Shown here: positions 5,321 to 44,248 of the stretch, one piece after another
Numbering within the stretch: the first letter of the stretch is position 1
Layout: each line of letters begins with the position of its first letter
UHGV virus genome: UHGV-2198558
Strand: one strand, 5' to 3'
Origin: a virus
Length of the DNA: 45,555 bases
The notes under the pieces: generated by a model
The model's input: only the letters and a program-made list of their open reading frames with translations
What the model was told of the DNA's origin: nothing
Databases searched by the model: none
Made by a program: the position numbers and the translations under genes

Positions 5321-5333
5321 TACAAAATTGCAC

Positions 5334-7506: not shown

Positions 7507-7531
7507 GGAGGCTTTCGAGCCTCCTTTTTTT
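7507..7531 (+). terminator. Rho-independent terminator
   Basis: ggaggct / agcctcc stem with a ttcg tetraloop, followed by TTTTTTT. Confidence 0.8.
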
Positions 7532-8906: not shown

Positions 8907-8994
8907 CTTGAAAAGAAACCAAACCGCAAGCGGCTGCAAAGCCCTCGCAGCCGAACCATTATTACATCGGTCGAAAGACCTGAACAGAAAGGAA

Positions 8995-9844: not shown

Positions 9845-9858
9845 TCGGAGGTGGCACG

Positions 9859-11106: not shown

Positions 11107-11179
11107 GGATCATACAATAATGCCGCAATTATTCTGTTTGGTGAATACGCAAAATTGAATGAAATATAGGAGGTATACT

Positions 11180-11755: not shown

Positions 11756-11795
11756 CGCATAAGGGAGGCTTGCCTCCCTGTACATACACAAACAG

Positions 11796-18253: not shown

Positions 18254-18338
18254 GATCATACTCTCCGTATGATCCGCACTGAAAAGACGACAAAGCGGCG
18301 ACAAAACGGTTACACCGCACTCTATGGAGGTGAAAACT

Positions 18339-21500: not shown

Positions 21501-21568
21501 GAGTGTGTAAGCGACAAAGCGTGGCAAGGTCAAAATCCAATAAACAATCATACAGGAGGAACACGAAT

Positions 21569-27185: not shown

Positions 27186-27499
27186 GAGCCAGACTGAAAC
27201 CGCCGGGAGATGCTGTCCGCTGCGATGCCTGCGGATGTGCCTTTGTGCCGGAGCCGAAAATGCAGCGTGAGGGAGAGATCGAATACAGCTTCCTCAACTG
27301 TGATTACTGTGGCAAAGCGTATATCGTGTCTGTGACCGATGCCGCACTCCGCCGGAGCATCCGCAAGTACCGGACGCTTGCCGAAAAGCTGAAGGGCAAG
27401 CCGTTGAGTGAAGATACGCTCCGTGAGGTCACGGCGCTGAAGGATGCGAACACAAAAAGAGCCGCAGAGCTGCGGCAGATGTATATTCGGGAGGGATGA
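27182..27499 (+). CDS. Hypothetical zinc-ribbon protein
   Basis: CDACGC...CDYCGK; ATG overlaps the nrdG stop. Confidence 0.5.
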   Translation: MRARLKPPGDAVRCDACGCAFVPEPKMQREGEIEYSFLNCDYCGKAYIVSVTDAALRRSIRKYRTLAEKLKGKPLSEDTLREVTALKDANTKRAAELRQMYIREG

Positions 27500-27500
27500 G

Positions 27501-28772: not shown

Positions 28773-29544
28773 TGTGAAGTGTGTATTATATCACGACAAC
28801 TTCCAAAACTTCAAAGGCTACAGCATCCCGAAAGCGCAGCTCGTCATCGCTGACATCCCGTACAACATCGGCGGCGATTTTTACGCAAGCCGCCCCGACT
28901 GGTATGTGGACGGTGACAATCAGAACGGCGAAAGCAGCAAAGCACATAAGGCGGCATTCCATACAGATTACAGCTTTAACATTGCTGAATACTTCGCCTT
29001 CTGCAACCGACTGCTCAAAAAAGAGCCGCCAAAAGGTGAAAAGGATGCGCCGTGCATGATCGTGTTCTGTGCCTTTCAGCAGATACCGGAAGTCATCCGG
29101 CAGGCGGAGAAATACGGCTTCAAGAAGTATCAGTTTTTGTGTTTTATGAAGAATTACAGTCCGCAGGTGTTGAAGGCGAACATGAGGATCGTGGGCGCAA
29201 CGGAATACGCTCTGGTGCTGTACCGGGGCAAGCTGCCGAAATTCCGAAACACGGATGAGAATGGCAAACACCACATGATCTTCGACCATTTTGACTGGAT
29301 GCGGGACGGCAAGGATATCCCGAAGATACATCCTTCGCAGAAGCCGGTAAATCTCCTGAAACGGCTGATCGGGATATTTACCGACGAGGGTGATGTGGTC
29401 ATCGATCCCTGCGCCGGTTCCGGCTCAACGCTGCGTGCGGCGAGGGAGCTTGGCAGACACAGCTACGGCTTTGAAGTCAGCCGGGATTTTTATAATAAAG
29501 CCTGTGAACTGATGCTTGGGGAGGATACCGATGACGAAGCATGA
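28759..29544 (+). CDS. Second DNA methyltransferase (N6-adenine/N4-cytosine class)
   Basis: ADIPYNIG (DPPY-like) and IDPCAGSGST (motif I); start overlaps the previous gene. Confidence 0.72.
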   Translation: MQLSDVKCVLYHDNFQNFKGYSIPKAQLVIADIPYNIGGDFYASRPDWYVDGDNQNGESSKAHKAAFHTDYSFNIAEYFAFCNRLLKKEPPKGEKDAPCMIVFCAFQQIPEVIRQAEKYGFKKYQFLCFMKNYSPQVLKANMRIVGATEYALVLYRGKLPKFRNTDENGKHHMIFDHFDWMRDGKDIPKIHPSQKPVNLLKRLIGIFTDEGDVVIDPCAGSGSTLRAARELGRHSYGFEVSRDFYNKACELMLGEDTDDEA

Positions 29545-29776
29545 ATGTGCGGTCGTGACCGCTTACACAGAGATTTCTATGCTCAAGGGCGACGATCTGA
29601 AATATCTGTATGACTATCTTTCCGGCTTTATCGGCAGACCGGTGTATACACACGAGATTTCTGCTGTGGTGATGGCTTACAGAGAGCAGATCAGGGAGGA
29701 CTTCCTCGATCTGTGCAGGAACGCAAAGGAGGCGGATGATGGATCAGAAACACTTGACTCTCGGCAGCTTATTTGA
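29531..29776 (+). CDS. Hypothetical small protein
   Basis: GGGGAGGA RBS before ATG 29531; overlaps flanking methyltransferase genes. Confidence 0.4.
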   Translation: MTKHECAVVTAYTEISMLKGDDLKYLYDYLSGFIGRPVYTHEISAVVMAYREQIREDFLDLCRNAKEADDGSETLDSRQLI

Positions 29777-32339: not shown

Positions 32340-32416
32340 ACGCATAACGTGCCCGTTTTGAAACGATGAAACGAAAACTCCCGAATCTGCGTTACTTTGA
32401 TTTCGCAAAGATACAC

Positions 32417-32599
32417 TCATTCAGATTTCTTGTCTCCGCCAAGCTCGATCTTTCCGTGCTTTTCCTCATATTTTTCAATGCAGTCACGGATCAGGATCAG
32501 AACCTGACTGTTGGCAGAACGACCTTCGTAATCGGCAACAACGTGAAGTTTATCAAGCATCTCCTGTTCGATACGGATGGATACACTTTTAATAGCCAT
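32417..32599 (-). CDS. Ribbon-helix-helix (CopG/Arc-like) DNA-binding protein
   Basis: MAIKSVSIRIEQEMLDKL... beta-strand then helix pattern; AAGGA RBS; the only minus-strand gene in the 35-kb plus-strand block. Confidence 0.55.
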   Translation of the reverse strand: MAIKSVSIRIEQEMLDKLHVVADYEGRSANSQVLILIRDCIEKYEEKHGKIELGGDKKSE

Positions 32600-32712
32600 A
32601 AAACAACTTCCTTTCAGATATATTATGACTTTATTTTAGACCTGTTTTGTGGTATAATGTTTGAAATGGATATAAAGTGTATCTAAAATATATCTATAAG
32701 AAGTTGTACGAT

Positions 32713-33051
32713 ATGAAAATAGCAATTATTGGCTCACGGGGACTTCATGTGAATGACCTTGAACGGTATCTTCCGGAAGATGTCACAGAAATCGTCAGCG
32801 GAGGAGCAAGGGGCATTGATTCGGATGCGCGGGCATACGCACAGGCACACGGCATTCCGCTGAAGGAGTTTCTGCCGGATTATGAACGCTTCGGCAGGAG
32901 CGCCCCGCTGAAACGGAATCTTGAGATCATCGCTTATGCCGATGTGGTGCTTGCATTCTGGGACGGACAGTCACGCGGCACGAAATATGTGATAGACCAT
33001 TGCCGGGAACAGCACGTTCCGGTCAGGGTTTTCGCACCGAGAAAGAAATAG
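32713..33051 (+). CDS. SLOG/DprA-like Rossmann-fold protein
   Basis: IAIIGSRG...VSGGARGIDSDARAYA...ADVVLAFWDGQSRGT pattern; start uncertain (ATG 32713 or GTG 32677). Confidence 0.5.
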   Translation: MKIAIIGSRGLHVNDLERYLPEDVTEIVSGGARGIDSDARAYAQAHGIPLKEFLPDYERFGRSAPLKRNLEIIAYADVVLAFWDGQSRGTKYVIDHCREQHVPVRVFAPRKK

Positions 33052-33186: not shown

Positions 33187-33215
33187 TTGCATTCCGGGGC
33201 AAAAGACGGTAATAT
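33187..33215 (+). promoter_or_regulatory. Cassette promoter 1
   Basis: TTGCAT, 17-nt spacer, TAATAT, followed by GTGAC leader. Confidence 0.5.
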
Positions 33216-33283
33216 GTGACTACGAAAACGCCGCAGCCCAACGCACAAGGCTGAGGGGCGGCAGTAAAAACGGAGGTAATCAT

Positions 33284-34192
33284 ATGGAAATCAAGTTCAA
33301 TATTGAAAAGAGCCAGCGCAAGGCACTGGCACAGAAAATCGGCGAGCTGACAGGAGCAGAGGTCAAGTACCTCGGTGTACCGGGCTGCAGATACCAGATC
33401 GACTTCTTCACCCTGGACAAAAACGCAGTCCTCAGTTTCAGCGACCGCATCGACACAGATATCGTGGAGAAGGTACTGAATGGGCTTGCAGAGGCAGGAT
33501 ATGAAAGCAAAACAGTAGCACCGCCGGAAGAAACGGATGCTTCGGCTGAATCAGAGCCGGATATCCCTGACGAACCGAGCAGCGGATTTCCGCTGCTCGC
33601 AAGCATCAGCTTCCCGATTGCAGAGCACACGGTGCAGAGCCTTACAAACCTTATCTGCATGATCCACTCCCGCGGCGCACTTCTCAGCAAGGCGACCGGC
33701 GGACAGTTCTTCGCAGACAAGAGCCTCGCCGATGCGATCCTCGATGACAAGACCTTCCGCAGCATCCACGAGCTTATCGCCTACATCAGAGTATGGGAGG
33801 AAACGAATCCCGAACTGAAGGGCATCCGTTTCGCCGATGACAAGCTGATCTTTGACGGCTTCGGTGCAGCGCAGGATGCCGAAACGGTGCAGACCTTCAC
33901 CAAGCTCGCCACAGCCATGAACAGGATGGCGATCACGCAGAAACGTGTGCAGGCAAAGGATGTCGATGACAGCAACGAAAAGTACGCACTCCGCATCTGG
34001 CTGATCCGCCTTGGGCTGAACGGCGCAGACTGCAAGGTTGACCGCAAGCGCCTCATGGCTCCGCTTTCCGGACACACCGCATTCCGCAACGATGCGGAGC
34101 GTGTGCGCTGGGAGGCAAAGCAAAAGGCAAAGCGTGATGCTGCCAGAACCGAACTGACCGAGGAGGATGAAAACGATGCAGTTTCCGAATGA
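33284..34192 (+). CDS. Hypothetical protein sharing a C-terminal module with the amidoligase
   Basis: CGGAGG RBS; C-terminus KYALRIWLIRLGLNGADCKVDRKRLMAPLSGHTAFRN aligns with the amidoligase C-terminus. Confidence 0.6.
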   Translation: MEIKFNIEKSQRKALAQKIGELTGAEVKYLGVPGCRYQIDFFTLDKNAVLSFSDRIDTDIVEKVLNGLAEAGYESKTVAPPEETDASAESEPDIPDEPSSGFPLLASISFPIAEHTVQSLTNLICMIHSRGALLSKATGGQFFADKSLADAILDDKTFRSIHELIAYIRVWEETNPELKGIRFADDKLIFDGFGAAQDAETVQTFTKLATAMNRMAITQKRVQAKDVDDSNEKYALRIWLIRLGLNGADCKVDRKRLMAPLSGHTAFRNDAERVRWEAKQKAKRDAARTELTEEDENDAVSE

Positions 34193-34424
34193 AAGACAGC
34201 TCAGAGCCTTGCGGGAGCGTTATCCCGCAGGCACCCGCATCCGACTGAAGCATATGGATGACCCTTATGCACCCGTACCGCCCGGCACGGTCGGCGAGGT
34301 TCAGATGGTTGATGACGGCGGCAACATACACATGGTCTGGGAGAATGGCAGAACGCTCTCCCTTATAGACGGTGTCGATGATTTCCAGGTCATTTCTGAC
34401 CGCAATGGGGGCTCCGGAAAATAA
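34176..34424 (+). CDS. Small conserved protein (DUF4314-like by recall)
   Basis: GAGGAGG RBS 9 nt before ATG 34176; GTVGEVQMVDDGGNIHMVWENGRTLSLIDGVDDF. Confidence 0.45.
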   Translation: MQFPNERQLRALRERYPAGTRIRLKHMDDPYAPVPPGTVGEVQMVDDGGNIHMVWENGRTLSLIDGVDDFQVISDRNGGSGK

Positions 34425-34537
34425 GAGATCCTATTCCATTGTATCCGAGTATACCATAGAATTTCAAGTATATCAAGTGTACACATACACCAGATATGAG
34501 CAATGTATTTTCCTCGATATTCTGTGGTTTTAGCGGC

Positions 34538-34566
34538 TTGCTATATCCTCCGAAAGACGGTAATAT
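34538..34566 (+). promoter_or_regulatory. Cassette promoter 2
   Basis: TTGCTA, 17-nt spacer, TAATAT, then conserved leader GTGACACAACGGAAGGGCAAACGCCCACCGAAAA. Confidence 0.55.
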
Positions 34567-34621
34567 GTGACACAACGGAAGGGCAAACGCCCACCGAAAA
34601 ACCGAATCGGAGGATACCAAA

Positions 34622-35566
34622 ATGACTGAGAAAACCGCACAGCAGATCAACAGAATGAAGGAGCAGACCATCGGGGTTGAGATCGAGATGAACAACATCA
34701 CCCGCAAGGCTGCCGCAAAGCTCGCCGCCGACTTCTTCGGCACGAACCGCTACGAGGACACGGCCTGCCGCAACGGCTACGAAACCTACAGTGCTTGGGA
34801 CGCACAGGGACGCGAGTGGAAATTCCAGAAGGACGTCAGCATCGCAGGCCCCGACAGCGAAAAGTGCGAACTGGTCACACCGATCCTGCACTACGCAGAC
34901 ATCGAAACCCTGCAGGAGCTTGTGAGAAGGCTCAGAAAGGCAGGAGCGCGCAGTGATTACACGCGGGGATGTGGAGTCCACTGCCACATTGGAGCCCAGG
35001 GACACACACCGCAGAGCCTCAGAAACCTCGCAAACCTTATGGCAAGCCACGAAACCCTGATCGCCGAGGCAATCAGAGTAGACCAGAGCAGAATGCACCG
35101 CTACTGCAGAACAGTTGACCCGAGATTCCTTGAACAGCTCAACCGCAAAAAGCCCACCACGATGGCACAGCTTGCGGACATCTGGTACGGCGCACAGGGC
35201 TGCGAATACGGCAGAACCCACCACTACAACGACAGCCGCTATCACATGCTCAACCTCCACGCTACCTTCACCAAAGGCACGGTCGAGTTCAGACTTTTCC
35301 AGTTCGCACCGCCTTCCAACGGCAAGCAGAACGGGCTCCACGCAGGCAAGCTCAAGAGCTACATTCAGCTCTGCCTCGCAATGAGCCAGATGGCAAAGGA
35401 CCTGCGGAGCGCCAGCCCCAAGGAACAGCAGAAGGAAAACAAAAAGTTCGCCATGCGGACTTGGCTGATGAGAATGGGATTCATCGGGGATGAATTCGCA
35501 ACGGCGAGAGAGGTCCTCACTGAGAACCTTACGGGCGACAACAGCTTCCGCTTCGGCAGATCTTAA
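34622..35566 (+). CDS. Amidoligase_2-family enzyme (putative peptide/metabolite ligase)
   Basis: N-terminal GVEIE motif; 314 aa; immediately upstream of an AIG2-like cyclotransferase gene, the conserved neighbourhood I recall for this family in Firmicutes phages. Confidence 0.65.
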   Translation: MTEKTAQQINRMKEQTIGVEIEMNNITRKAAAKLAADFFGTNRYEDTACRNGYETYSAWDAQGREWKFQKDVSIAGPDSEKCELVTPILHYADIETLQELVRRLRKAGARSDYTRGCGVHCHIGAQGHTPQSLRNLANLMASHETLIAEAIRVDQSRMHRYCRTVDPRFLEQLNRKKPTTMAQLADIWYGAQGCEYGRTHHYNDSRYHMLNLHATFTKGTVEFRLFQFAPPSNGKQNGLHAGKLKSYIQLCLAMSQMAKDLRSASPKEQQKENKKFAMRTWLMRMGFIGDEFATAREVLTENLTGDNSFRFGRS

Positions 35567-35831
35567 AGGCCTGCCCTTCGGGGCGGAAGAACAAGCGGAA
35601 CGGCACGGCGGCGCACACAGCCGCCACGGTCTCGGCTCTCGCCTCGGTCGGTGCTTCTGCTTCGCAGAGGTTGCCACTGGCAACCCGCACCCCCGTGTGT
35701 GGCGGAAAGGGTATCCTCCGAATCGGTATCCCATCTCAGTCAACCGCGCCACACAGCGCAAATGTAGGCAAGGCATAAAATGCACAACATACGGCACAGA
35801 ATCGCCCTCGATGATCTGTTCATTTACCCGC

Positions 35832-35860
35832 TTGATAATGCCGCCGAAATGAGTTAACAT
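35832..35860 (+). promoter_or_regulatory. Cassette promoter 3 (diverged leader)
   Basis: TTGATA, 17-nt spacer, TAACAT. Confidence 0.45.
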
Positions 35861-35899
35861 AGCACTACCGCAAGGAAAAAACGCAAAGGAGAACATAGC

Positions 35900-36367
35900 A
35901 TGAACAAGAAAAAATACTACATAGCCTACGGCAGCAACCTCAACATCCGCCAGATGCGATTCCGCTGCTCAGGCGCAAAGCCCATCGGCATTTCCGCGAT
36001 TCCTGACTACGAACTGCTCTTCAAGGGCAGCAAGACGGGAGCGTACCTCACCATCGAGCCGAAGGACGGCGGGCTTGTTCCGGTCGCCGTGTGGGAAGTG
36101 ACAGCCGACGATGAGAAGCACCTCGACATCTACGAGGGCTACCCGAACTTCTACTACAAGAAGGAAGTCCGCCTGCCAATCAGGCTGGCAAACGGCAAGA
36201 CCAAAAAGGTCACGGCATTTGTCTACATCATGCACGAGGAGCGTGAGATTGCGATCCCGTCAATGACCTACATCCGCACCTGCGAGGAAGGCTACCGCAA
36301 CTTCGGCTTCGACACCAAGTTCCTTGATGCCGCCTACGAGATCAGCGCAAAGGAGGTACAGCGATGA
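35900..36367 (+). CDS. AIG2-like / gamma-glutamyl cyclotransferase family protein
   Basis: YIAYGSNLNIRQM N-terminal motif; AAAGGAG RBS; 155 aa. Confidence 0.75.
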   Translation: MNKKKYYIAYGSNLNIRQMRFRCSGAKPIGISAIPDYELLFKGSKTGAYLTIEPKDGGLVPVAVWEVTADDEKHLDIYEGYPNFYYKKEVRLPIRLANGKTKKVTAFVYIMHEEREIAIPSMTYIRTCEEGYRNFGFDTKFLDAAYEISAKEVQR

Positions 36368-36564
36368 AAGACCGCAACAAAGAGCCGCACATCTGCCCGA
36401 AATGCGGGCAGGCGTACACCGCCCGACCAGCTCTTTCCCGCGTGGATAACAGCCCAATCTGCCCCGACTGCGGAACGCGTGAAGCGCTTGAAAGCATCGG
36501 CGTCGGACGCGAGGAACAGGACAAGATTCTCGGCATCATCCACGAGAAGTACGAAGGCGAATAA
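36364..36564 (+). CDS. Small zinc-ribbon protein
   Basis: ATGA overlap with the AIG2 stop; CPKCG...CPDCG. Confidence 0.5.
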   Translation: MKDRNKEPHICPKCGQAYTARPALSRVDNSPICPDCGTREALESIGVGREEQDKILGIIHEKYEGE

Positions 36565-36572
36565 GTCGGCAC

Positions 36573-36594
36573 AAAGGGGCGTTACAGCCCCTTT
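36573..36594 (+). terminator. Hairpin, possible weak terminator
   Basis: aaaggggc / gccccttt stem with gttaca loop; weak U-tract. Confidence 0.35.
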
Positions 36595-36635
36595 CCGCAT
36601 TCTCAGGGATAACTTATCCCCCACTTTCCGGGCGT

Positions 36636-36655
36636 GACACGGCGCGTTCTGGCGC
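36636..36655. repeat. Cassette boundary repeat (short copy)
   Basis: gacacggcgcgttctggcgc shares the ACACGGCGCG core with copies at 38314, 39198 and 40524. Confidence 0.45.
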
Positions 36656-36721
36656 AAACTATGTACCTGTTCAGCTTGCTGAAAACGGCGATTCTTCTAC
36701 GATTTATTTTGCACATAGGCG

Positions 36722-36750
36722 TGGACTTTTCAGGCAAAAGGCGGTAGTAT
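36722..36750 (+). promoter_or_regulatory. Cassette promoter 4
   Basis: TGGACT, 17-nt spacer, TAGTAT, then conserved leader. Confidence 0.5.
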
Positions 36751-36807
36751 GTGACACAACGGAAGGGCAGACAGCCCACCGGAATTCATAACATGGAGGA
36801 TACGAAC

Positions 36808-37278
36808 ATGAACGACAGCTACTTTGAGGAGATGACCTTCCAGTGCGCCGCCTATGAACGCGCCAAAAAGGAGCGCGCCGAGCGCAAGGCTCAGATTGCC
36901 GAAGCCCACGGCTACGACAGCCCGGAGGTGGACGCTTGGTACGCTGAGGAGAAGGCGGCAGGTCCTTACCCCTACAGCGGCAATGAGATGAAAGCCTACT
37001 GGGTGTACAAGATGCGCCGCGAGAACGACGGTGACGAGTTCGAGATGAGCGATTACTGCTGGGACAAGGAATTCCACGATTTCATCGAAACGCTCCGCAA
37101 GCTAGGCATCACCGAGTTCACGATCACCAATCAGAGCACGGCGCTGATGGAGAACATCTACGGATTTATTGCAGAAGGCTGCACGATGGTCGGAACGCAC
37201 ACCATCACCAAGAAGAGCCTGCGCTGGGGCGAGGAAGAATACGAAACGGCACAGGGCATCCTTTTCAAGGTGAACTGA
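36808..37278 (+). CDS. Hypothetical protein
   Basis: GGAGGA RBS 7 nt before ATG 36808; 156 aa. Confidence 0.6.
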   Translation: MNDSYFEEMTFQCAAYERAKKERAERKAQIAEAHGYDSPEVDAWYAEEKAAGPYPYSGNEMKAYWVYKMRRENDGDEFEMSDYCWDKEFHDFIETLRKLGITEFTITNQSTALMENIYGFIAEGCTMVGTHTITKKSLRWGEEEYETAQGILFKVN

Positions 37279-37286
37279 TATCGACA

Positions 37287-37322
37287 GGAGCAGGGCTTCG
37301 GCTCTGCTCCCCTCCCCCTTTT
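37287..37322 (+). terminator. Rho-independent-like terminator
   Basis: 10-bp stem ggagcagggc / gctctgctcc with ttcg tetraloop, then a C/T-rich tract ending TTTT. Confidence 0.5.
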
Positions 37323-37395
37323 CCTCATGTGTAAATCCTACAATACGAAAGGCTGAGATCGGCGATTCTTCTACGTTTTATTTTGCACATAGGCG

Positions 37396-37424
37396 TGGAC
37401 TTATCAGCAGGATCATGGTAATAT
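37396..37424 (+). promoter_or_regulatory. Cassette promoter 5
   Basis: TGGACT, 17-nt spacer, TAATAT, then conserved leader. Confidence 0.5.
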
Positions 37425-37479
37425 GTGACACAACGGAAGGGCAGAACGCCTACCGAAAAACGAAACGGAGGATAACACC

Positions 37480-37800
37480 ATGAACCCCTACACACTGAGA
37501 AAGAGCCTGAACCTGATTGATGCCAACACGGCGATCACCCGCGAGGACTTCGAGAGCCTCTTCTGCAAGACTGCAGAGCGTGTCACCTTTACCTTCAACG
37601 GTTGGGACGGCAAGAGCTATGATGGCGAGAGGCGCAGCGGTTACGTTTACCGCACCATCATCGAGGGCTACGAGAATGTGAGATTCGTTAAGGTCGGCAA
37701 GGGACTGCATTACATCGATGAGGACAGCAGCATTACCGAGAAGGCTACGGGCATCGCCCACAAGGAAGCAGAGTGGCTGGTCGATGTGAAGAGAGCATAA
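37480..37800 (+). CDS. Hypothetical protein
   Basis: CGGAGGA RBS; 106 aa. Confidence 0.6.
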   Translation: MNPYTLRKSLNLIDANTAITREDFESLFCKTAERVTFTFNGWDGKSYDGERRSGYVYRTIIEGYENVRFVKVGKGLHYIDEDSSITEKATGIAHKEAEWLVDVKRA

Positions 37801-37866
37801 GCAAAACAGCGGAGCCCTTCCTGCGGGGAGGGCTTACCGCAGAAAAAAACATGGAGGTTTACGAAC

Positions 37867-38250
37867 ATGAGTACGAATTCAAGAGTCGGAATTCTGCATC
37901 AGGACGGCGTCACGGAGACAATCTACTGCCATTGGGACGGCTACCCCGAACACCAGATGCCCATCCTCACCGAGCATTATAACACCGCCGAGAAGGTCAA
38001 GGCACTGCTTGCCCTTGGAGACATCAGCATCCTCGGCGAGCGCCTTGCTCCCGATGCGGATGAGCCGCACAGCTTTGAAAAGCCTGCCGATGGTGTGACG
38101 GTTGCTTACCACCGCGACCGCAAAGAGCCGATGCAGCCTGCGGTCACCCACAAGAGCGTTGTTTCCCTGATGAGCGATGACTGGGGCATTCCGTATTACT
38201 ACCTTTTCGATGAGGAAAAAGGAGCATGGCTTCCGCCGACCGAGGACTGA
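37867..38250 (+). CDS. Hypothetical protein
   Basis: GGAGG RBS 9 nt before ATG; 127 aa; no own promoter, co-transcribed with 37480. Confidence 0.6.
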   Translation: MSTNSRVGILHQDGVTETIYCHWDGYPEHQMPILTEHYNTAEKVKALLALGDISILGERLAPDADEPHSFEKPADGVTVAYHRDRKEPMQPAVTHKSVVSLMSDDWGIPYYYLFDEEKGAWLPPTED

Positions 38251-38313
38251 TAGGTTCAGCCCTGCGGGGCTGACTTGCCCCACGTTGTCCTTTGTGCGGT
38301 TTTCCTGCGATAA

Positions 38314-38366
38314 GCTTGCCCCTGCGGAAAGCCGCCTCACACGGCGCGTTTGTGTGCCTCCTGTGG
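38314..38366. repeat. Cassette boundary repeat
   Basis: cttgcccctgcggaaagccgcctcacacggcgcgtttgtgtgcctcctgtggg. Confidence 0.5.
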
Positions 38367-38430
38367 GCTTGGTGCTATGTATACAACAAATGGCGCAGAT
38401 ACGCCGATTTTGTTCTGAACATTTAGCCGC

Positions 38431-38459
38431 TTGCTATTCCGGAAAGATCATGGTAATAT
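38431..38459 (+). promoter_or_regulatory. Cassette promoter 6
   Basis: TTGCTA, 17-nt spacer, TAATAT, then conserved leader. Confidence 0.5.
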
Positions 38460-38515
38460 GCTACACAACGGAAGGGCAAACGCCCACCGAATACAAAACA
38501 CGGAGGTAAACCACC

Positions 38516-38898
38516 ATGACAAAGAAGGAAATGAAAGCCGCAGTTGCCAAGCTGAAGATGCTGCAGAACGGCAAAGCCGCCCTTGAGGGAATGACCGAAG
38601 CGGACTGCCTTGAGCTTTTCGGGATCAGCAGAGCGCAGGCACTTGCAAACACAAACGCCGCCCTTGCCAAAACCGAGCAGGAGATTTNNNNNNNNNNNNN
38701 NNNNNNNNNNNNGAGCATCCGCTGACAGGCATCGACAAACAGCTCTTCGAGATCGCAGCAAAGCACCTGATCACGGTGCAGGAGCGCGGAGACCTTGAAG
38801 CCCGCCACTGCGACAGCGAGGACTTCATCGAGGGTTCGGTCTGGGGGCTGGAAGCCGCCCTCAAGGATGCCTACGAGGCAGGACGCAAGAGCAAGTAA
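38516..38898 (+). CDS. Hypothetical protein interrupted by an assembly gap
   Basis: CGGAGGT RBS and ATG 38516; coding resumes after the N-run and ends at TAA 38896-38898. Frame across the gap cannot be determined. Confidence 0.4.
38688..38712. other. Assembly gap (25 N)
   Basis: Run of n characters in the sequence. Confidence 0.99.
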
Positions 38899-38960
38899 CC
38901 AAACGGAACAGCGCAGCCCTTCCGCAGGGAGGGGCTGCCAATCCCGAAGGAGGAAAGAAC

Positions 38961-39140
38961 ATGGATACATACGCACAGCTTGAAATGCTGACCGCAGTCA
39001 TCGCAAACCTGTCGGCCACGGGAACATGGACGGAGCGAGAAGTGATGGAAACGCTGCTGGATGTCTTTGAACCGAAGGAGCTTGAACAGCTCGGCTACGG
39101 CGACTGCGTGAACGCATACTTGGAAGAGTACGGCGGATAG
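38961..39140 (+). CDS. Small acidic protein (59 aa), below the ORF-track length cutoff
   Basis: AAGGAGGAAA RBS 7 nt before ATG 38961; MDTYAQLEMLTAVIANLS...EEYGG, stop TAG 39138-39140. Confidence 0.5.
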   Translation: MDTYAQLEMLTAVIANLSATGTWTEREVMETLLDVFEPKELEQLGYGDCVNAYLEEYGG

Positions 39141-39197
39141 CGACGACACACGCACCACGTTGCCTCGTGTGGGGCGGTGCCGGGGAGATGCGTACAG

Positions 39198-39240
39198 CTT
39201 GCCCCTGCGAAAAGCCGCCTTACACGGCGCGTTCTGGCGC
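39198..39240. repeat. Cassette boundary repeat
   Basis: cttgcccctgcgaaaagccgccttacacggcgcgttctggcgc. Confidence 0.5.
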
Positions 39241-39310
39241 GTCCTATACGATGTACAATTCCGCCCGACTTCCCGCCTCATGTTTGTCACATTTATTTTG
39301 CAGACAGACG

Positions 39311-39339
39311 TGGACTTTTCTGCGAAAAGACGGTAATAT
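39311..39339 (+). promoter_or_regulatory. Cassette promoter 7
   Basis: TGGACT, 17-nt spacer, TAATAT. Confidence 0.5.
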
Positions 39340-39386
39340 GTGACTACCGCAAGAGAAGCGGAATCAATCAAAAGGAGCGAATCTAC

Positions 39387-39740
39387 ATGAAAATTCTGGT
39401 ATGCGAACCCGGCAAGCACCCCTACGTCAAGGACATCGAGTCGGGGCTGGAGAACCTTCAGCACGAGGTGGACGGACTGATTCAGGCCCTCTACCCATTT
39501 TCCGAAGAGGCGGCTGTTGTGTGCAACGAAGAAGGGCTGTTCCGCGATGACCTCGAATGGAACAGAACGGTCGATCCCTATGGTCCGATCAAGGGAACAT
39601 TCTTCATTTGTGGGCTCGGCTTTGAAGATTTTACAGGACTGACCGATGAACAGATCGAAAAGTACACTAAGCTCTTCTGGCCTCCTGAGCTTTTCATCCC
39701 GACACCGAACGGCATGGTGGTGCTTCACATTGTGGAATGA
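39387..39740 (+). CDS. DUF3846-like protein
   Basis: AAAGGAG RBS; MKILVCEPGKHPYVKDIE...YPF...VVCNEEG...GTFFICG pattern, recalled from mobile-element proteins of Firmicutes. Confidence 0.55.
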   Translation: MKILVCEPGKHPYVKDIESGLENLQHEVDGLIQALYPFSEEAAVVCNEEGLFRDDLEWNRTVDPYGPIKGTFFICGLGFEDFTGLTDEQIEKYTKLFWPPELFIPTPNGMVVLHIVE

Positions 39741-39843
39741 CCGCAACAGGGGCAGGGCTTCGGCTCTGCTCCGCACTATTCCCCGGTCATAATGTACACA
39801 ACTGAACGCCGAAAAATGCAGAAATGATCGTGATTACTCACGC

Positions 39844-39872
39844 TTGATAATGTAGGCAAGAAGAGTTATACT
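39844..39872 (+). promoter_or_regulatory. Cassette promoter 8
   Basis: TTGATA, 17-nt spacer, TATACT; leader hairpin variant gggcggaaagccc. Confidence 0.5.
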
Positions 39873-39929
39873 GTGTACAACGGAAGGGCGGAAAGCCCAG
39901 CCGAAAACGAAAATGCGGAGGTACACACC

Positions 39930-40109
39930 ATGAAAACGAAGCAGGAACTGATCGAGAAGGCAAAGAAAGAGTGGGGCGAGACTTGGAACGAGGGCATGAT
40001 CGAGTACGATGCCGAGTACAACGAGTACATCGTCTGGGTAGGCAAGCCGGACATCTACAAAGCCTTCTTCGATGCCGACACCCTCAGATGCATTGGCACG
40101 AAGTGCTGA
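39930..40109 (+). CDS. Small hypothetical protein (59 aa)
   Basis: GCGGAGGT RBS; followed by a ccgccc-ttcg-gggcgg hairpin. Confidence 0.5.
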   Translation: MKTKQELIEKAKKEWGETWNEGMIEYDAEYNEYIVWVGKPDIYKAFFDADTLRCIGTKC

Positions 40110-40164
40110 GAACAACCGCCGCCCTTCGGGGCGGCACAACACCAATACTAAGGAGGACATTTAC

Positions 40165-40437
40165 ATGAGCGAGAACACAGAAAAGCGCGATGCAGCCGAA
40201 GAACTAGAACTTACCGATGCACAGGCAGACCGCAACGATGACATCTACGAGGCAGCTTTTGAATTCTGCAAGGTGCTGACCGAGAACCCCGACCTCGAAT
40301 GGGACATGGCGTTCCTCGGTGAGATCGCCGACCTTGCCGCTGGCATCATGACCGAGCAGGGACACAAGGTGCGGTTCCCCAGTGTGGTCACCGAGCAGGA
40401 CGGCACGCAGTACATTGAAGAATACTACGGCGGCTGA
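40165..40437 (+). CDS. Small highly acidic protein (90 aa)
   Basis: AAGGAGG RBS before ATG 40165; roughly 23 Asp/Glu against about 6 basic residues. Confidence 0.55.
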   Translation: MSENTEKRDAAEELELTDAQADRNDDIYEAAFEFCKVLTENPDLEWDMAFLGEIADLAAGIMTEQGHKVRFPSVVTEQDGTQYIEEYYGG

Positions 40438-40523
40438 TCGGCAAAACGGAGCAGTCCTTCTGCGGAGGGGCTGTTCCACGCCACGTTCGCTTGTGTGGGG
40501 GGCTTACGGCTTTCTGCGGATAT

Positions 40524-40575
40524 CTTGCCCCGCGATAAAAGCCGCCCACACGGCGCATTTGTGTGCCTCCTGTGG
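40524..40575. repeat. Cassette boundary repeat
   Basis: cttgccccgcgataaaagccgcccacacggcgcatttgtgtgcctcctgtgg. Confidence 0.5.
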
Positions 40576-40638
40576 CAAGGCATAATATGTACAACAACCG
40601 ACAAAAAATCGCCTTGCACATTCTGGTAGTTTAGCCGC

Positions 40639-40667
40639 TTGATATATCTGCCGAAAAGAGTTATAGT
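40639..40667 (+). promoter_or_regulatory. Cassette promoter 9
   Basis: TTGATA, 17-nt spacer, TATAGT; leader variant with cgggaaaccg hairpin. Confidence 0.5.
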
Positions 40668-40723
40668 GTGTACAACGGAACGGGAAACCGAGCCGAAAAC
40701 TACGAAAGAACGAGGTAAACACT

Positions 40724-40960
40724 ATGTGGCACGAAGGCACGATTCTGGCACCGACCAAGGAAGGCAAGACGGTGGTTCACTACTGGGCAAAGGTCTACGA
40801 CGAGGGCAGCCAGTACGGCATCAACGAGGGCAGAATCAGTAAACTGACACTCAAGGAGAATGGCAAGGTCATCTACAACTATGACAGAGGCGAGGATGTA
40901 CCCGAGCAGAACGAGGCTGCGGAGATTGCCCTTGCGATCCTGATGTACGAGTACAAGTAA
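40724..40960 (+). CDS. Small hypothetical protein (78 aa)
   Basis: ORF directly downstream of cassette promoter 9 and its leader; weak SD (ACGAGG). Confidence 0.5.
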   Translation: MWHEGTILAPTKEGKTVVHYWAKVYDEGSQYGINEGRISKLTLKENGKVIYNYDRGEDVPEQNEAAEIALAILMYEYK

Positions 40961-41048
40961 ATAGAACGGTCGGTAGGCGGTAGCATTAAGCCGCCCATCC
41001 AAACCAAGACGGACACACATATAAATTCAAGGTGGATATACATAGGAG

Positions 41049-41077
41049 AGGCTTGCAGCACGCAGGCCTTTTCTTTA
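41049..41077 (+). terminator. Rho-independent terminator closing the cassette array
   Basis: 8-bp stem aggcttgc / gcaggcct (one G-U), 5-nt loop, then TTTTCTTT. Confidence 0.65.
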
Positions 41078-41108
41078 TGCAGATTTTTTGAGAAAAGGAG
41101 TGATGCGG

Positions 41109-41582
41109 ATGGCTCAGAGAGGCAGAAAACCGACGCCGACAGCAATCAAGGAACTGGAAGGCAATCCCGGAAAACGACCGCTGAATGATGCAGAGCCGAA
41201 GCCGGAACGCAAGGCACCGCCCTGTCCGAAGTGGCTGGAGCCCGAAGCAAAAAAGGAATGGCGCAGGCTGTCAAAGCAACTGGAGCAGATTGGTGTGCTG
41301 ACCGAGGTCGATCAGGCGGCATTCGCATCCTACTGTCAGGCATACGCACGATGGAAAGAAGCCGAGGAATTCATGACCCAGCACGGCACGATCGTAAAAA
41401 CAAAATCAGGTTACTGGCAGCAGGTTCCGCAGGTATCCATTGCGCAAACTTATCTGAAGATCATGAACAAGATCGCAGAGCAGTTTGGCCTGACCCCGGC
41501 GGCAAGAAGCCGTATCACTGCCGGCGCAGATATGAAAAACGCTGCCGTTGACGATATGGATGAACTTCTCGGAGGTGGCTGA
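41109..41582 (+). CDS. terS: Terminase small subunit (P27-family-like)
   Basis: MAQRGRKPTPTAIKELEGNPGKRPLN N-terminus; AAGGAG RBS 8 nt before ATG 41109; stop overlaps the terL start. Confidence 0.8.
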   Translation: MAQRGRKPTPTAIKELEGNPGKRPLNDAEPKPERKAPPCPKWLEPEAKKEWRRLSKQLEQIGVLTEVDQAAFASYCQAYARWKEAEEFMTQHGTIVKTKSGYWQQVPQVSIAQTYLKIMNKIAEQFGLTPAARSRITAGADMKNAAVDDMDELLGGG

Positions 41583-44248
41583 TGGCGAGAACGGCAAAGG
41601 CAAGAGAAAGACCTGCCAACTATCCGAAACTGAAGGATTATAAACCGACACGCTTTATGCTGCCGGAATCGCACTACGATGCGGCAAAGGCTGACCGAGC
41701 TGTGCGGTTCATCGAGAATCTCTGCCATACCAAAGGACGCTGGGCAGGCAAACCGTTCTGGCTGCTTCCGTGGCAGGAACAGATCATCCGGGATATTTTC
41801 GGCATCGTCAAAGAGGACGATATGCGGCAATTTCGTACCGCCTATGTCGAAATTCCAAAGAAAAATGGGAAGCAGCTTGCACTGGATACACCGATCCCGA
41901 CTCCGCAGGGATTCACCAATATGGGAGATCTGAAGGTCGGAGATACAGTATTCGATGAAAACGGCATTCCGTGCCATGTGGTTGCGAAAAGTCCTGTGGA
42001 TGATACAGAGCAAGCCTACAAGCTGACCTTCAAGGACGGCACCTCGATCATTGCCGGGGAAAGGCATCTGTGGAACTGTCAGTATATTTACGGCAAACGC
42101 AAGGATGTTCTCTGGACGACCGGCGAGATCTATCGCAGGACAACGGAATACAGACAGCGTTTTTCCGACAGACCACAGACAAAGCGGGATTCCCTTATCC
42201 GAATTCCGGTGTGCGGTGTCCTTCAGACAGAAGCGGCAGTTTTACCGATTGATCCGTATCTGTACGGCTACTGGCTCGGAAACGGTAATGTGACCATGCC
42301 GGAGATCACTGTTCGGACGGAGGATGTCGAGGATATCATCTCGAATATTCCGTATAAGGTACACAACCGTTATCCGCAGAAATGCGGCGGCAGTGAGATC
42401 ATAAAGTACAATGAACTGAAAGCAGTACTACTTGACAGCTTCCGTGAAAAGAAGATCCGACCAGAATATCTGAGGGCATCCGCAGAGCAGAGATGGGCAT
42501 TACTGCAAGGGCTTATGGATTCGGACGGCTGTATCGGCGAACGCAAAGGGCAAAGTGTGTATGTCACAACGCTGCGAGAGCTGGCGCTTTCCGTCAGAGA
42601 ACTGCTGTGGTCACTCGGCATCAAAAATGCAGTGAAATGTGAGCCTTCTACACGGCATGGGTGGCCGACCGGCGAGATTTTGTATATCGTCCGTTTTACA
42701 ACCTTTGATGGCCAACCGACATCAAGGCTTAAACGCAAAAATACACGCACACAGGCGCGGTTAAAGGAAACTCGCTCCTGTTTTCATTATCTGCTGGATA
42801 TTCAACCTGTAAATCATCCTGTAAAAATGCAGTGCATTCAGGTGGACAGTCCGAGTCACCAATATCTCGCAGGACCGTCATTTGTGCCTACGCACAACAG
42901 TGAGCTTGCAGCGGCAATTGCACTGTATCTGCTCTACGCCGACAACGAGCCGTCTGCTGAGGTCTACGGCGCTGCTGCTGATCGTGGGCAGGCATCCATT
43001 GTATTCGATGTCGCCAAAAGAATGGTTGAGATGACACCGGCACTTCTGAAACGCTCAAAAATCATGGCGGCGACAAAGCGTCTGGTGAATTACAGTAATG
43101 TTGGCTTTTATCAGGTGCTTTCAGCGGAAGTCGGTACAAAGCACGGATTGAATGTATCCGGTCTGGTTTTGGATGAACTTCATGCCCAACCGAACCGCAG
43201 CCTTGTGGATGTTCTCACAAAGGGTTCCGGTGATGCCCGTACTCAGCCGCTGTACTTCCTGATCACAACCGCCGGAACGGATCGCAACAGCATCTGCTAC
43301 GAGTATCACACGAAAGCAAAAGATATTCTGGACGGCAGGCGCATTGATCCGTCCTTCTATCCTGTGATCTACGGCTTGAACGATGATGACGACTGGAACG
43401 CAGAGGAGTCATGGTATAAGGCAAATCCCTCGCTCGGATACACTATCGCCATCGACCGAGTCCGCGATGCTCACCGGGAAGCCCTTACAAATCCCGCTGA
43501 AGAAAATGTATTCCGTCAGCTGAGGCTTGACCAGTGGGTAGGCAGTGCGGTGGCATGGATTCCGGAGCATATCTACGACAGGGGCAATCTTCCGATCGAC
43601 CTCGAAAAGCTCCGGGGACGGGAGTGCTACGCAGGTCTTGACCTATCCAGCACATCGGATATCACGGCATTTGTGCTGGTGTTCCCTCCGCTGCATGACG
43701 GCGAGAAATACATCGTTGTCCCGCACTTCTGGCTGCCGAGAGAAACGCTCGATTTGCGAGTACGGCGAGACCATGTTCCCTACGATGTATGGGAGCGCAT
43801 GGGATTATTTCATATCACCGAGGGCAATGTGGTCGATTACAATTTCGTGCGGAAAACGATCAACGAGCTGCACACGATGTACAACATCAAGGAAATTGCT
43901 GCCGACCGCTGGAATGCCACACAGCTTATCACAGACCTTGAGGGAGACGGATTTACCGTTGTTCCGATGGGTATGGGCTTCAAGGATATGTCCCCGCCGA
44001 TGAAGGAACTGTACAAGCTCATACTCGAGGGGCAGTTTATCCACGGCGGCAACCCTGTACTCCGCTGGATGGCAGGAAATGTGGTCGCTGAAATTGATGC
44101 AGCGGAGAACATCAAACCAAGTAAAAAGAAAAGTACAGAAAAGATTGACGGTATCGTGGCATGGATCATGGCACTTGACCGCTGCATCCGCCACGAAATG
44201 CAGGGCAGTGTCTATGACGAACCCGGCCACGATCTTGTGGTCATCTGA
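41582..44248 (+). CDS. terL: Terminase large subunit interrupted by an intein
   Basis: 888 aa against a typical size near 550; ATPase P-loop region YVEIPKKNGK / SELAAAIALYLLYAD split by a 342-aa insertion; C-terminal nuclease-domain-like sequence. Confidence 0.85.
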   Translation: MARTAKARERPANYPKLKDYKPTRFMLPESHYDAAKADRAVRFIENLCHTKGRWAGKPFWLLPWQEQIIRDIFGIVKEDDMRQFRTAYVEIPKKNGKQLALDTPIPTPQGFTNMGDLKVGDTVFDENGIPCHVVAKSPVDDTEQAYKLTFKDGTSIIAGERHLWNCQYIYGKRKDVLWTTGEIYRRTTEYRQRFSDRPQTKRDSLIRIPVCGVLQTEAAVLPIDPYLYGYWLGNGNVTMPEITVRTEDVEDIISNIPYKVHNRYPQKCGGSEIIKYNELKAVLLDSFREKKIRPEYLRASAEQRWALLQGLMDSDGCIGERKGQSVYVTTLRELALSVRELLWSLGIKNAVKCEPSTRHGWPTGEILYIVRFTTFDGQPTSRLKRKNTRTQARLKETRSCFHYLLDIQPVNHPVKMQCIQVDSPSHQYLAGPSFVPTHNSELAAAIALYLLYADNEPSAEVYGAAADRGQASIVFDVAKRMVEMTPALLKRSKIMAATKRLVNYSNVGFYQVLSAEVGTKHGLNVSGLVLDELHAQPNRSLVDVLTKGSGDARTQPLYFLITTAGTDRNSICYEYHTKAKDILDGRRIDPSFYPVIYGLNDDDDWNAEESWYKANPSLGYTIAIDRVRDAHREALTNPAEENVFRQLRLDQWVGSAVAWIPEHIYDRGNLPIDLEKLRGRECYAGLDLSSTSDITAFVLVFPPLHDGEKYIVVPHFWLPRETLDLRVRRDHVPYDVWERMGLFHITEGNVVDYNFVRKTINELHTMYNIKEIAADRWNATQLITDLEGDGFTVVPMGMGFKDMSPPMKELYKLILEGQFIHGGNPVLRWMAGNVVAEIDAAENIKPSKKKSTEKIDGIVAWIMALDRCIRHEMQGSVYDEPGHDLVVI
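41873..42898 (+). mobile_element. Intein (342 aa) in TerL, non-canonical Gln at position 1, with LAGLIDADG-like motifs
   Basis: Block A-like QLALDTPIPT, block B-like GERHLW, block F-like MQCIQVD, block G FVPTHN followed by Ser; internal LYGYWLGNGN and LLQGLMDSDGCI. Confidence 0.6.

Follow-up and report, generated by a model that had tools for sequence, protein, structure and literature searches.

Repeated promoter-leader cassettes ahead of small accessory genes in a predicted Heliusvirales-like temperate phage

The viral genome UHGV-2198558, a stretch of 45,555 nucleotides that we refer to as the window, carries ahead of its terminase genes an array of nine similarly built units, all on the plus strand and lying within positions 33187-40723. 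They were delineated by reading the sequence and by extracting the intergenic regions between 32.9 and 41.7 kb. Every unit opens with a −35 hexamer, a spacer of exactly 17 nt, and a −10 hexamer, proceeds through a leader to a strong ribosome-binding (Shine-Dalgarno, SD) site, and continues into one to three small open reading frames (ORFs), here called its cargo. An earlier note on this DNA had proposed nine sigma-70-like promoters with this exact spacer, and all nine are present. In appearance they are host sigma-A promoters, with predicted activity; the phage's own early promoter, beside its CI-like repressor, has a like form (TTGCAA, a 16-nt spacer, and TATAAT). The array as a feature is real, stands well above chance, and is evolutionarily conserved, and the structural account in the earlier note is substantially correct.

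The regulatory parts of the units (U1 to U9) are given below as ranges that run from the start of the −35 hexamer to the nucleotide before the first cargo start codon. U1 (33187-33283) joins TTGCAT to TAATAT (−10 at 33210-33215) and has a leader starting with GTGACTAC, a hairpin of its own, and the SD sequence CGGAGG. In U2 (34538-34621), TTGCTA and TAATAT are followed by the shared leader ACAACGGAAGGGCAAACGCCCACCGAAAA, with its two-tier hairpin, and CGGAGG; U3 (35832-35899) has TTGATA and TAACAT, a divergent leader lacking a clear hairpin, and AAGGAG. The shared leader hairpin recurs in U4 (36722-36807; TGGACT, TAGTAT, SD GGAGG), in U5 (37396-37479; TGGACT, TAATAT, SD CGGAGG), where it includes a G-U pair (GGGC/GCCU), and in U6 (38431-38515; TTGCTA, TAATAT, SD CGGAGG). 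U7 (39311-39386) combines TGGACT and TAATAT with the leader GTGACTACCGCAAGAGAAGCGG, which has its own hairpin, and AAGGAG. Finally, U8 (39844-39929; TTGATA, TATACT, SD CGGAGG) displays the shared hairpin as GGGC-GGAAA-GCCC, and in U9 (40639-40723; TTGATA, TATAGT, SD GAGG) the inner helix is replaced (CGG-GAAA-CCG). Hence, four −35 variants are in use (TTGCAT, TTGCTA, TTGATA, and TGGACT), along with five copies of the −10 hexamer TAATAT and one each of TAGTAT, TAACAT, TATACT, and TATAGT. The earlier description of the cassettes as near-identical is too strong: the recurring unit is real, but the 51-nt promoter segments share a mean pairwise identity of 0.51, fall into at least three classes, and are followed in three units by differing leaders. 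Similarly, the SD sequence CGGAGG, which had been given for all the units, is found in five of the nine, whereas the other four use GGAGG, AGGAG, or GAGG variants.

For searches we used a family-specific profile, a hidden Markov model built from the nine 51-nt promoter segments, in place of an over-strict generic scan. On both strands of the 45.5-kb window, this profile matches the nine array sites and nothing else; independently, a repeat finder returns repeat families of 42-90 nt. Information content is high from about −58 to +35, including positions that are not usually constrained in sigma-A promoters. Directly upstream of U1, the segment 33120-33175 (TTCTGTACTATGCACAATCTAAAGGGCAGACACGCCCC) resembles the conserved upstream block followed by a decayed leader hairpin; by eye, this could be what is left of a tenth unit, and the profiles do not detect it.

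The leader had been described as a conserved stretch of about 50 nt in all nine units. This holds for six of them (U2, U4, U5, U6, U8, and U9), which share the core ACAACGGAAGGGC...CCGAAAA, but not for U1, U3, and U7: U1 and U7 have a different common start, the GTGACTAC noted above for U1, plus their own hairpins, and U3 has no clear hairpin. The 13-nt core ACAACGGAAGGGC occurs in five exact copies, all in the array, and once more with two mismatches, and the full 34-nt leader of the earlier note is exact in one unit and within three mismatches in one more. If transcripts start 5-8 nt past the −10 hexamer, the mRNAs are predicted to begin at about ACACAACGG, placing the hairpin 2-4 nt from the 5′ end. 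Alignments of the leader and of a second repeated element (el0, described below) made with MAFFT were out of register, for which reason RNAalifold returned almost no consensus structure from them; they were replaced by per-sequence folds and a covariance model. The folds place all leader-bearing units in one two-tier form, CGG-AA-(inner stem-loop)-N-CCG. Among 91 distinct leaders, 83 keep the CGG/CCG outer stem, and the inner helices comprise GGGC/GCCC (53 leaders), CGG/CCG (9), GGC/GCC (7), GGGCG/CGCCC (6), and G-U variants. The first covariance-model alignment (A4) held invariant stems only and was uninformative; in an alignment of 66 distinct leaders, 98.9% of the cells are paired, versus 17-64% when the partners are slid. 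The sequence ACAACGGAA is invariant across 48 distinct leaders, and the stems hardly ever vary, which suggests sequence-specific recognition or recent common descent. No Rfam family reaches its gathering score in the window, and the best match at E ≤ 1 within 33.0-41.2 kb is to PhotoRC-I on the minus strand (17.5 bits against a gathering score of 45; E = 0.75). In Bacillus, 5′-proximal stem-loops and strong ribosome-binding sites stabilize mRNAs against decay, and by this analogy mRNA stabilization is the simplest role that might be proposed for the leader hairpin.

The units are usually closed by GC-rich hairpins, as the earlier note had it; by folding these are real, though they lack U tracts. 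Nine lie on the plus strand, at about 35571-35586, 36573-36594, 37287-37310, 37809-37840, 38256-38273, 38911-38939, 39749-39772, 40118-40135, and 40448-40477. They follow a stop codon by 10-15 nt, have tetraloops, and also occur between the cistrons of a single operon. Their predicted energies range from −11 to −26 kcal/mol, with z-scores of about −2 to −5 for eight of the nine and −0.55 for the weakest (35571-35586). A terminator scan called none of these U-less hairpins as canonical intrinsic terminators. The sole canonical intrinsic terminator (41049-41085, plus strand) has a 7-bp stem, GGCUUGC/GCAGGCC, together with UUUUCUUU, and is situated between the array and TerS. One rival idea is that the leader hairpin is a nut/boxB-like antitermination site, at which an N-like protein would promote read-through of the U-less hairpins. 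The small hairpin near the 5′ end with purine-rich loops of 4-5 nt (AAAC, AGACA, GGAAA, and GAAA) and the presence of several hairpins inside operons speak for it. We nevertheless regard it as very unlikely: the one Rfam match is the insignificant PhotoRC-I hit on the other strand, no N-like protein and no boxA came to light, an array with nine promoters of its own has little need of antitermination over long distances, and hairpins without U tracts may not terminate at all.

The second repeated element, absent from the earlier note, was first flagged as a spurious “family” by ORF clustering. This element, el0, is a conserved non-coding imperfect palindrome of about 100 nt that starts approximately 150 nt upstream of the promoter profile; the full module reads el0, about 50 nt, promoter, leader, and ribosome-binding site. 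In the window, plus-strand copies precede the promoters of U6 (copy 1, 38277-38369), U7 (copy 2, 39152-39254), and U9 (copy 3, 40479-40580). A divergent el0-like element lies upstream of U3 (35691-35765, plus strand; E = 9e-5 with an iterated profile), and a partial one, comprising the 3′ half (...GACACGGCGCGTTCTGGCGC), lies upstream of U4 (36607-36663, plus strand). Across the first 48 related loci and the window there are 115 copies (73 distinct), each on the same strand as its array. When folded single-stranded, el0 gives an extended, imperfect hairpin with an energy between −35 and −50 kcal/mol and a slight advantage in stability for the plus strand, and some G-T wobbles and CG/TA exchanges keep the pairing. 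It has no Rfam match. We rejected el0 as a small protein gene: the overlying ORFs (36-71 aa) lack a ribosome-binding site, and the copies differ by 1-2-nt indels, which marks the element as non-coding. Nor is it a widely distributed element, as true copies are found only with the promoters, and other 17-mer matches are chance hits in GC-rich contigs. A Frpo-type single-stranded DNA (ssDNA) promoter was likewise discarded, given the GC-rich stem, the lack of a −35/−10 pair at 17-nt spacing, and the setting in a terminase-packaged phage, a kind whose DNA enters the cell double-stranded. For el0, the candidate roles are those of an insulator, of a 3′ structure or processing site in the RNA, and of a plain conserved spacer.

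The cargo genes are small and all lie on the plus strand. U1 carries a 302-aa amidoligase-related protein (33284-34192) and a DUF4314 protein (34167-34424), U2 an Amidoligase_2 protein of 314 aa (34622-35566), and U3 a GGACT/AIG2-like protein (35900-36367) with a 66-aa zinc-ribbon protein (36364-36564). The 302-aa protein has a C-terminal region in common with the Amidoligase_2 protein of U2 and yields no Pfam Amidoligase_2 match. U4 encodes an acidic DUF7698 protein of 156 aa (36808-37278), and U5 a 106-aa protein (37480-37800), an intercistronic hairpin, and an acidic 127-aa protein (37867-38250; phrog_1987), the last of which has its own cassette in the relatives L006 and L020. U6 comprises a gene of our family c1 (38516-38898) and an acidic 59-aa protein (38961-39140). 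The c1 gene is broken by a run of 25 N (38688-38712) where relatives have 8 nt and an intact 121-aa protein; as its halves are out of frame as given, the N stretch seems to stand in for a mask or gap and not to reflect the true length. The remaining cargo consists of an acidic DUF3846 protein of 117 aa in U7 (39387-39740), a 59-aa protein (39930-40109), a hairpin, and a very acidic 90-aa protein (40165-40437; net charge −17) in U8, and a DUF7678 protein of 78 aa in U9 (40724-40960). Six of 13 cargo proteins have an isoelectric point below 5 and net charges of −10 to −17, bearing out the earlier remark that several are strongly acidic.

For the cargo, Pfam supplies DUF or family labels only (Amidoligase_2, DUF4314, GGACT, zinc ribbon, DUF7698, DUF3846, and DUF7678, beside the amidoligase-related 302-aa protein), and six proteins are without family assignment, namely five read here and the product of the N-interrupted c1 gene. 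For ten cargo proteins, PHROGs offered no function beyond the label “amidoligase enzyme” on the 302-aa protein. Nine cargo proteins searched with the PADLOC defence models gave no match; the SLOG protein upstream of the array alone matched, weakly, to PsyrA and ShosA. A sequence search of the PDB with four cargo proteins returned nothing significant (best E = 0.1), and a confident structure model of the DUF3846 protein had no informative structural neighbour. A text search gave no support to the idea that the paper on “polyvalent proteins” names DUF3846 and DUF4314. The set of amidoligase-like, DUF4314, amidoligase, GGACT, and zinc-ribbon genes is conserved well outside the cassette-bearing lineage, with GenBank Heliusvirales phages and Terrisporobacter phage TPDSL_ph1 among its carriers. 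Further, in a different phage lineage (L166-L169, metagenome contigs from ENA; genes 6001-12174), a DUF1492 protein and S-adenosylmethionine (SAM) synthetase flank a distant DUF3846 homologue, with an Amidoligase_2...GGACT operon on the opposite strand a few kilobases away. This layout indicates that the DUF3846, amidoligase, and GGACT genes travel together as a guild, which says nothing of their function. An anti-defence label for the cargo is not supported by these results; probably, the cargo acts on the host or on competing elements.

The array can be followed through 92 related loci, comprising IMG/VR contigs, contigs of rumen metagenome-assembled genomes (MAGs), and the window itself. 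A 21-mer from the leader matches exactly in 48 IMG/VR loci, many with two to four copies, and in seven rumen MAG contigs assigned to Oscillospiraceae, Ruminococcus, and Clostridia. From the gene content and these relatives, the window appears to be a temperate, Heliusvirales-like phage of rumen Oscillospiraceae/Ruminococcus. The leader profile gives 244 matches in relatives, and the promoter profile 367 matches of at least 20 bits in the 92 loci, with none on the minority strand of an array. Relatives in GenBank are “Ca. Heliusvirales” gut phages; the sole signal by which they are detected is in the amidoligase-GGACT genes, about 70% identical at the nucleotide level. Among loci anchored on the amidoligase, those with 90-98% amino-acid identity have strong cassettes, and those with 82-90% have weaker, recognizable ones (six in L078, UViG_2540341248_000001, a contig whose number is that of an isolate genome and which therefore suggests a cultured host). 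Loci at about 77% amidoligase identity, like the GenBank Heliusvirales phages, have no cassettes, so the architecture is specific to one sublineage rather than general to these phages. Contig ends, considered as a guide to whether the array enters the cell first, are inconsistent.

The position of the array is fixed, always between the methyltransferase/SLOG genes and TerS, and its contents vary: 28 complete arrays show 18 layouts, with 5-23 genes in 3-12.5 kb. We counted 132 unique combinations of promoter, leader, and cargo, with 19 cargo families immediately behind a promoter. Four families (c13, f4w, f14w, and D7698) each occur behind two to four promoter classes. The f14 gene, for example, keeps its own 3′ leader, whereas upstream of the ACACAACGGAAGGGC core the promoter is of the TGGACT class in the window and of the TTGCTA class in L013 and L026. 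Permutations are seen too, with the order of f12 and f17 flipping and f19 taking three different positions. The junctions of such differences are informative. At a place where the window has two copies of el0, L022 and several other relatives have a single one, which equals copy 2 in its left (5′) half and copy 3 in its right (3′) half; the switch lies inside the shared AAAAGCCGCC..CACACGGCGC stretch, and the chimera matches the absence of a 1.25-kb stretch holding two cassettes (DUF3846 and the f50-f21 operon). To judge by its sequence, the chimeric el0 marks an el0-by-el0 crossover. In L010, the promoter-leader of U4 drives a different gene and 3.7 kb is replaced by that one gene, the junctions being at 36799, on the leader/SD boundary immediately ahead of the start codon, and within el0 at 40525. 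Of 39 homology breakpoints in all, 24 are in the 32% of the region that is non-coding, and el0 holds six in 4% of the length. The notion of conserved flanks around variable, recombination-shuffled cargo is upheld by the 18 layouts, the chimeric el0, the L010 junction, and the cargo found behind two to four promoter classes; relatives do not simply carry the same cargo in the same order.

Another reading is that of an integron-like platform, with el0 as a folded attC-like site for a site- or structure-specific recombinase. In its favour, the element lies at the 3′ ends of cassettes as an imperfect, strand-specific palindrome (about 100 nt) whose plus-strand changes keep the pairing; it is confined to arrays, and one cassette difference has its junction inside it. 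As an attC site, however, el0 fails on anatomy, since inspection reveals no RYYYAAC/GTTRRRY cores, and its folding z-scores are modest. The array genes and flanks include no integrase or recombinase domain, each cassette carries its own promoter, unlike integron cassettes, el0 is present at three to five of the nine window units and about half of the cassettes overall, and crossover may have occurred anywhere within the shared identical stretch, as in ordinary homologous recombination. We therefore consider an integron-like platform highly improbable. A broader version, in which the leader hairpin and el0 would be cis-elements of a dedicated phage system (an RNA-binding regulator that governs every cassette by way of the invariant ACAACGGAA hairpin and/or structure-specific recombination at the el0 palindrome) and the array an integron-like capture-and-express platform, also strikes us as improbable; if true, the cassette signature could be used to harvest counter-defence and host-takeover genes from the phages of rumen and gut Clostridia.

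Taking these findings together, we propose, as the probable explanation, that the region is a hyperplastic accessory-gene module made of autonomous, “plug-and-play” units of expression, in which the recurring regulatory sequence is also what recombination acts on. The repeats exist, are co-oriented and confined to the module, are conserved in about 90 loci, and coincide with crossover points. Each cassette would comprise an upstream conserved block, a sigma-A-type promoter (−35 TTGnTA or TGGACT, 17 nt, −10 TAATAT), a leader of 40-100 nt with the two-tier 5′ hairpin, a spacer rich in A, a strong GGAGG site, between one and three small ORFs, each trailed by a GC-rich hairpin, and often el0 (about 100 nt). 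Host RNA polymerase would fire each cassette independently, so that a gene dropped between two modules is expressed without dependence on its neighbours. Expression most likely comes early after DNA entry or induction, a timing suggested by the true terminator that insulates the array from the late operon starting at TerS. The 5′ hairpin and strong ribosome-binding site might stabilize and boost short mRNAs, and the 3′ hairpins and el0 might curb read-through or degradation from the 3′ end. Homologous recombination would act on the 50-100 nt of non-coding sequence that the units have in common and so shuffle the cargo; it would rely either on RecA of the host or on two candidate recombination proteins encoded in the window, a DUF2800 nuclease and an Enc34-type ssDNA-binding protein.

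Several observations weigh against this proposal. A generic promoter scan recovered four of the nine units, with no excess over shuffled sequence; such a scanner misses most units because the common −10 hexamer TAATAT agrees with the consensus at only four of six positions. Covariation in the leader hairpin is small, with compensatory change in two of seven pairs (seven cells), and the near-invariant leader sequence would fit a protein-binding site equally well as a structure. The z-scores for el0 folding run from −0.85 to −2.8, and the lack of U tracts leaves it uncertain that the 3′ hairpins act as insulators. As for shuffling, the backbone gene order is largely conserved, and differences are mostly of presence or absence with few permutations, so that cargo is not freely shuffled; 15 of the 39 breakpoints are in coding sequence, and at least one deletion, in L005, joins el0 to the interior of a gene, as in illegitimate recombination. 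Concerted evolution of the promoters was looked for and rejected (identity 0.51 within genomes versus 0.56 between); as promoter classes are not homogenized within genomes, exchange must be too infrequent for it. Lastly, promoter activity, transcript starts, and the timing of expression are deduced from the sequence, as are the functions given to the hairpins and the choice of recombination enzyme.

The breadth of the conserved region invites another reading, compatible with that of autonomous cassettes, in which the array is a co-regulated regulon and recombination a by-product. The conserved non-sigma positions would then be operators or RNA sites of a dedicated phage regulator, the candidates being the upstream block TTCTGTACATTTAGCCGC, the spacer motif CaAAA..GG, GTGAC after the −10 hexamer, and the invariant ACAACGGAA with its hairpin, and all cassettes would be switched together in a burst on entry followed by shut-off, comparable to Reg576 on p576 or RegA/RegB in T4. 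Such a regulator would account for information content beyond the usual sigma-A constraint, for the retention of the non-consensus TAATAT in 114 of the 132 unique cassettes, and for the fixity of the leader and its stems; strong sigma-A promoters in a prophage would, moreover, need silencing. A precedent exists in the four establishment-gene promoters of p576, which share a heptamer operator bound by Reg576 (PMC6294495); these and the anti-defence leading regions of plasmids (PMC11541004) resemble the array in their small establishment genes, shared promoter features, and burst on entry, but belong to conjugative plasmids and have a defined heptamer operator with a known repressor, or ssDNA (Frpo) promoters. 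Candidate regulators in the window include a protein with a sigma-70 region 4 match (8036-8863), the zinc-ribbon protein of the array, and a MazF-like RNase. On the other hand, none was identified as the regulator, the palindromic candidate operator at the CI/early promoter (5326-5341) is not repeated at the nine promoters, three units keep the promoter without the shared leader, and no clear dyad or direct-repeat operator emerged. A CCGAAA-type heptamer as a dual operator looked suggestive by eye but was indistinguishable from purine-rich composition. We hold a dedicated regulon to be a possible, tentative explanation.

Among described systems, the closest match to the autonomous cassettes proposed here is provided by the PeSLs (promoter-early stem-loops) of T4-like phages, repeated cassettes of a sigma-70 promoter and a stem-loop that mediate modular shuffling of ORFans (Arbiol et al. 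2010, PMC2839356; Comeau et al. 2014, PMC4122927), and by its sequence organization the array appears to work like them. Both consist of a repeated intergenic sigma-70-type promoter, a GC-rich stem-loop, and an SD site with start codon, cluster in a hyperplastic region, ahead of small genes to which no function is assigned, and contain the junctions of differences between close relatives. The carrier, however, is here a temperate Heliusvirales-like phage of Gram-positive anaerobes, where PeSLs belong to virulent T4-like myoviruses, and the two are unrelated in sequence; carried by a phage with a CI-like repressor and a Terminase_4 TerS, the array is not a member by descent. The module, measured from el0 to the start codon, is also much longer (about 250 nt), it has a transcribed, conserved 5′ hairpin leader and a separate 100-nt palindrome, and its stem-loops, which lack U tracts, stand apart from the promoter, whereas those of PeSLs lie inside it or overlap it and act as terminator or attenuator. 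Further, a single array of up to about 11 units contrasts with roughly 50 PeSLs over several regions, and early promoter activity and mini-circles have been shown for PeSLs, whereas the promoter activity of the present cassettes is predicted.

A second precedent is the host-takeover module of SPO1, in which small early operons lie together and carry strong expression signals, both promoters and ribosome-binding sites (Stewart et al. 1998, as related in PMC6873191). As there summarized, it too comprises small, mostly uncharacterized genes of a Gram-positive phage in many short operons; it differs in that SPO1 is virulent, its module lies in the terminal redundancy, and its early expression has been shown where ours is predicted, and the portion of the account at hand describes no shared leader hairpin, el0-like element, or shuffling of cassettes between relatives. 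The earlier remark that the architecture was not recognized as that of a described system is too strong in the light of PeSLs and the SPO1 early operons. More distant is the SAS/ESAS (start-associated sequence and its extended form) of Cluster K mycobacteriophages, a 13-bp motif of unknown function at the ribosome-binding site (PMC3203893). According to the part of that source consulted, it adjoins the starts of many non-structural genes of a temperate siphovirus in one orientation, with an upstream imperfect inverted repeat in about half of the cases, but has no associated promoter, is unrelated in sequence, and has no reported role in recombination. In the main Heliusvirales paper, the words “promoter”, “amidoligase”, and “accessory” are absent, and we found no description of these cassettes in the searchable literature.

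Morons, in the concept of Hendrix and Juhala, are single, heterogeneous insertions, often of deviant composition, that are expressed in the lysogen. The array could be regarded as a set of morons whose cassettes are expressed from the repressed prophage for the benefit of the lysogen, for instance through defence, exclusion of superinfecting phages, or a change of the cell surface made by the amidoligase/GGACT pair, and are not early infection genes. Like a moron, each unit has its own promoter and a downstream hairpin, if one lacking a U tract, and sits between conserved phage modules, and no CI-type operator is seen at the array promoters. A surface-modification role of prophage amidoligases has been raised for Clostridium clostridioforme prophages (PMC11318856). 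By composition, the array (G+C content 0.53-0.565) equals the rest of the phage (about 0.50-0.56), leaving no sign of foreign origin, and it is an array built on one regulatory design with a common promoter-leader, in contrast to the heterogeneity of classic morons. Every unit points the same way as the lytic genes, no PADLOC model was matched by any of the nine cargo proteins searched, and the neighbouring methyltransferases and SAM synthetase suit infection-time functions. A moron array is on these grounds doubtful.

Should the cassettes function as proposed, they would extend the principle of the mobile regulatory cassette from virulent T4-like phages of Gram-negative hosts to temperate gut and rumen phages of Gram-positive hosts, with a longer and more elaborate module that comprises an upstream palindrome, promoter, 5′ hairpin leader, and ribosome-binding site. 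The short profile provides a search handle that recovers hundreds of cassettes and 19 promoter-adjacent cargo families in uncultured phages, and this cargo offers natural candidates for host-takeover, counter-defence, or lysogen-benefit genes in little-known hosts. As compact expression cassettes, the units may also serve as genetic parts for Oscillospiraceae and Ruminococcus, for which tools are scarce. None of this hinges on the unproven anti-defence label.

The remainder of the window is consistent with a temperate phage. A LexA/CI-like repressor is encoded on the minus strand (4259-5149), and next to it a perfect 7-2-7 inverted repeat, AATTGCA-CT-TGCAATT (5326-5341), overlaps the −35 hexamer of the early promoter TTGCAA-16-TATAAT (5326-5362). 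This palindrome, beside the divergently transcribed repressor gene, is a likely operator; the pattern AATTGCA-n2-TGCAATT does not recur at the nine array promoters. The early protein mentioned above (8036-8863, 275 aa), in which the sigma-70 region 4 match is confined to the C terminus, could be a phage sigma factor or activator, which bears on whether the array promoters depend on sigma-A alone. The gene order continues with the DUF2800 nuclease, the Enc34-type ssDNA-binding protein, DNA polymerase A, an SNF2 helicase, the PemK/MazF-like endoribonuclease (18324-18842, within the replication module, upstream of and overlapping the start of the next gene), and a D5-type primase, and then with SAM synthetase (21503-22663), NrdD/NrdG, three DNA methyltransferases, the SLOG protein, the array, TerS, and TerL. 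The left boundary of the array (27444-33051, plus strand) thus consists of a ParB-N6 methyltransferase, an N6/N4 methyltransferase, an 867-aa C5 methyltransferase with three matched stretches, a 106-aa ORF, and a YAcAr/SLOG protein. The possession of its own SAM synthetase together with three methyltransferases (27444-32339) suggests that the phage heavily methylates itself. On the right, the plus-strand genes for TerS (Terminase_4, 41103-41582) and TerL (41582-44248) follow. TerL, at 888 aa, contains a LAGLIDADG-type intein (Pfam match at residues 303-369) upstream of the matched part of its ATPase domain; in relatives TerL has 546, 703, or 888 aa, indicating that only some of them carry the intein.

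At the opposite end of the window, the first 2 kb have a G+C content of 0.38-0.39, much below the value of about 0.52 that holds for the phage. Minus-strand genes within 1-2900 encode a 503-aa GHKL/HATPase_c_3 protein and a 365-aa protein without a family, and this segment may represent either host sequence flanking the prophage or a foreign module of the moron or defence-like type.

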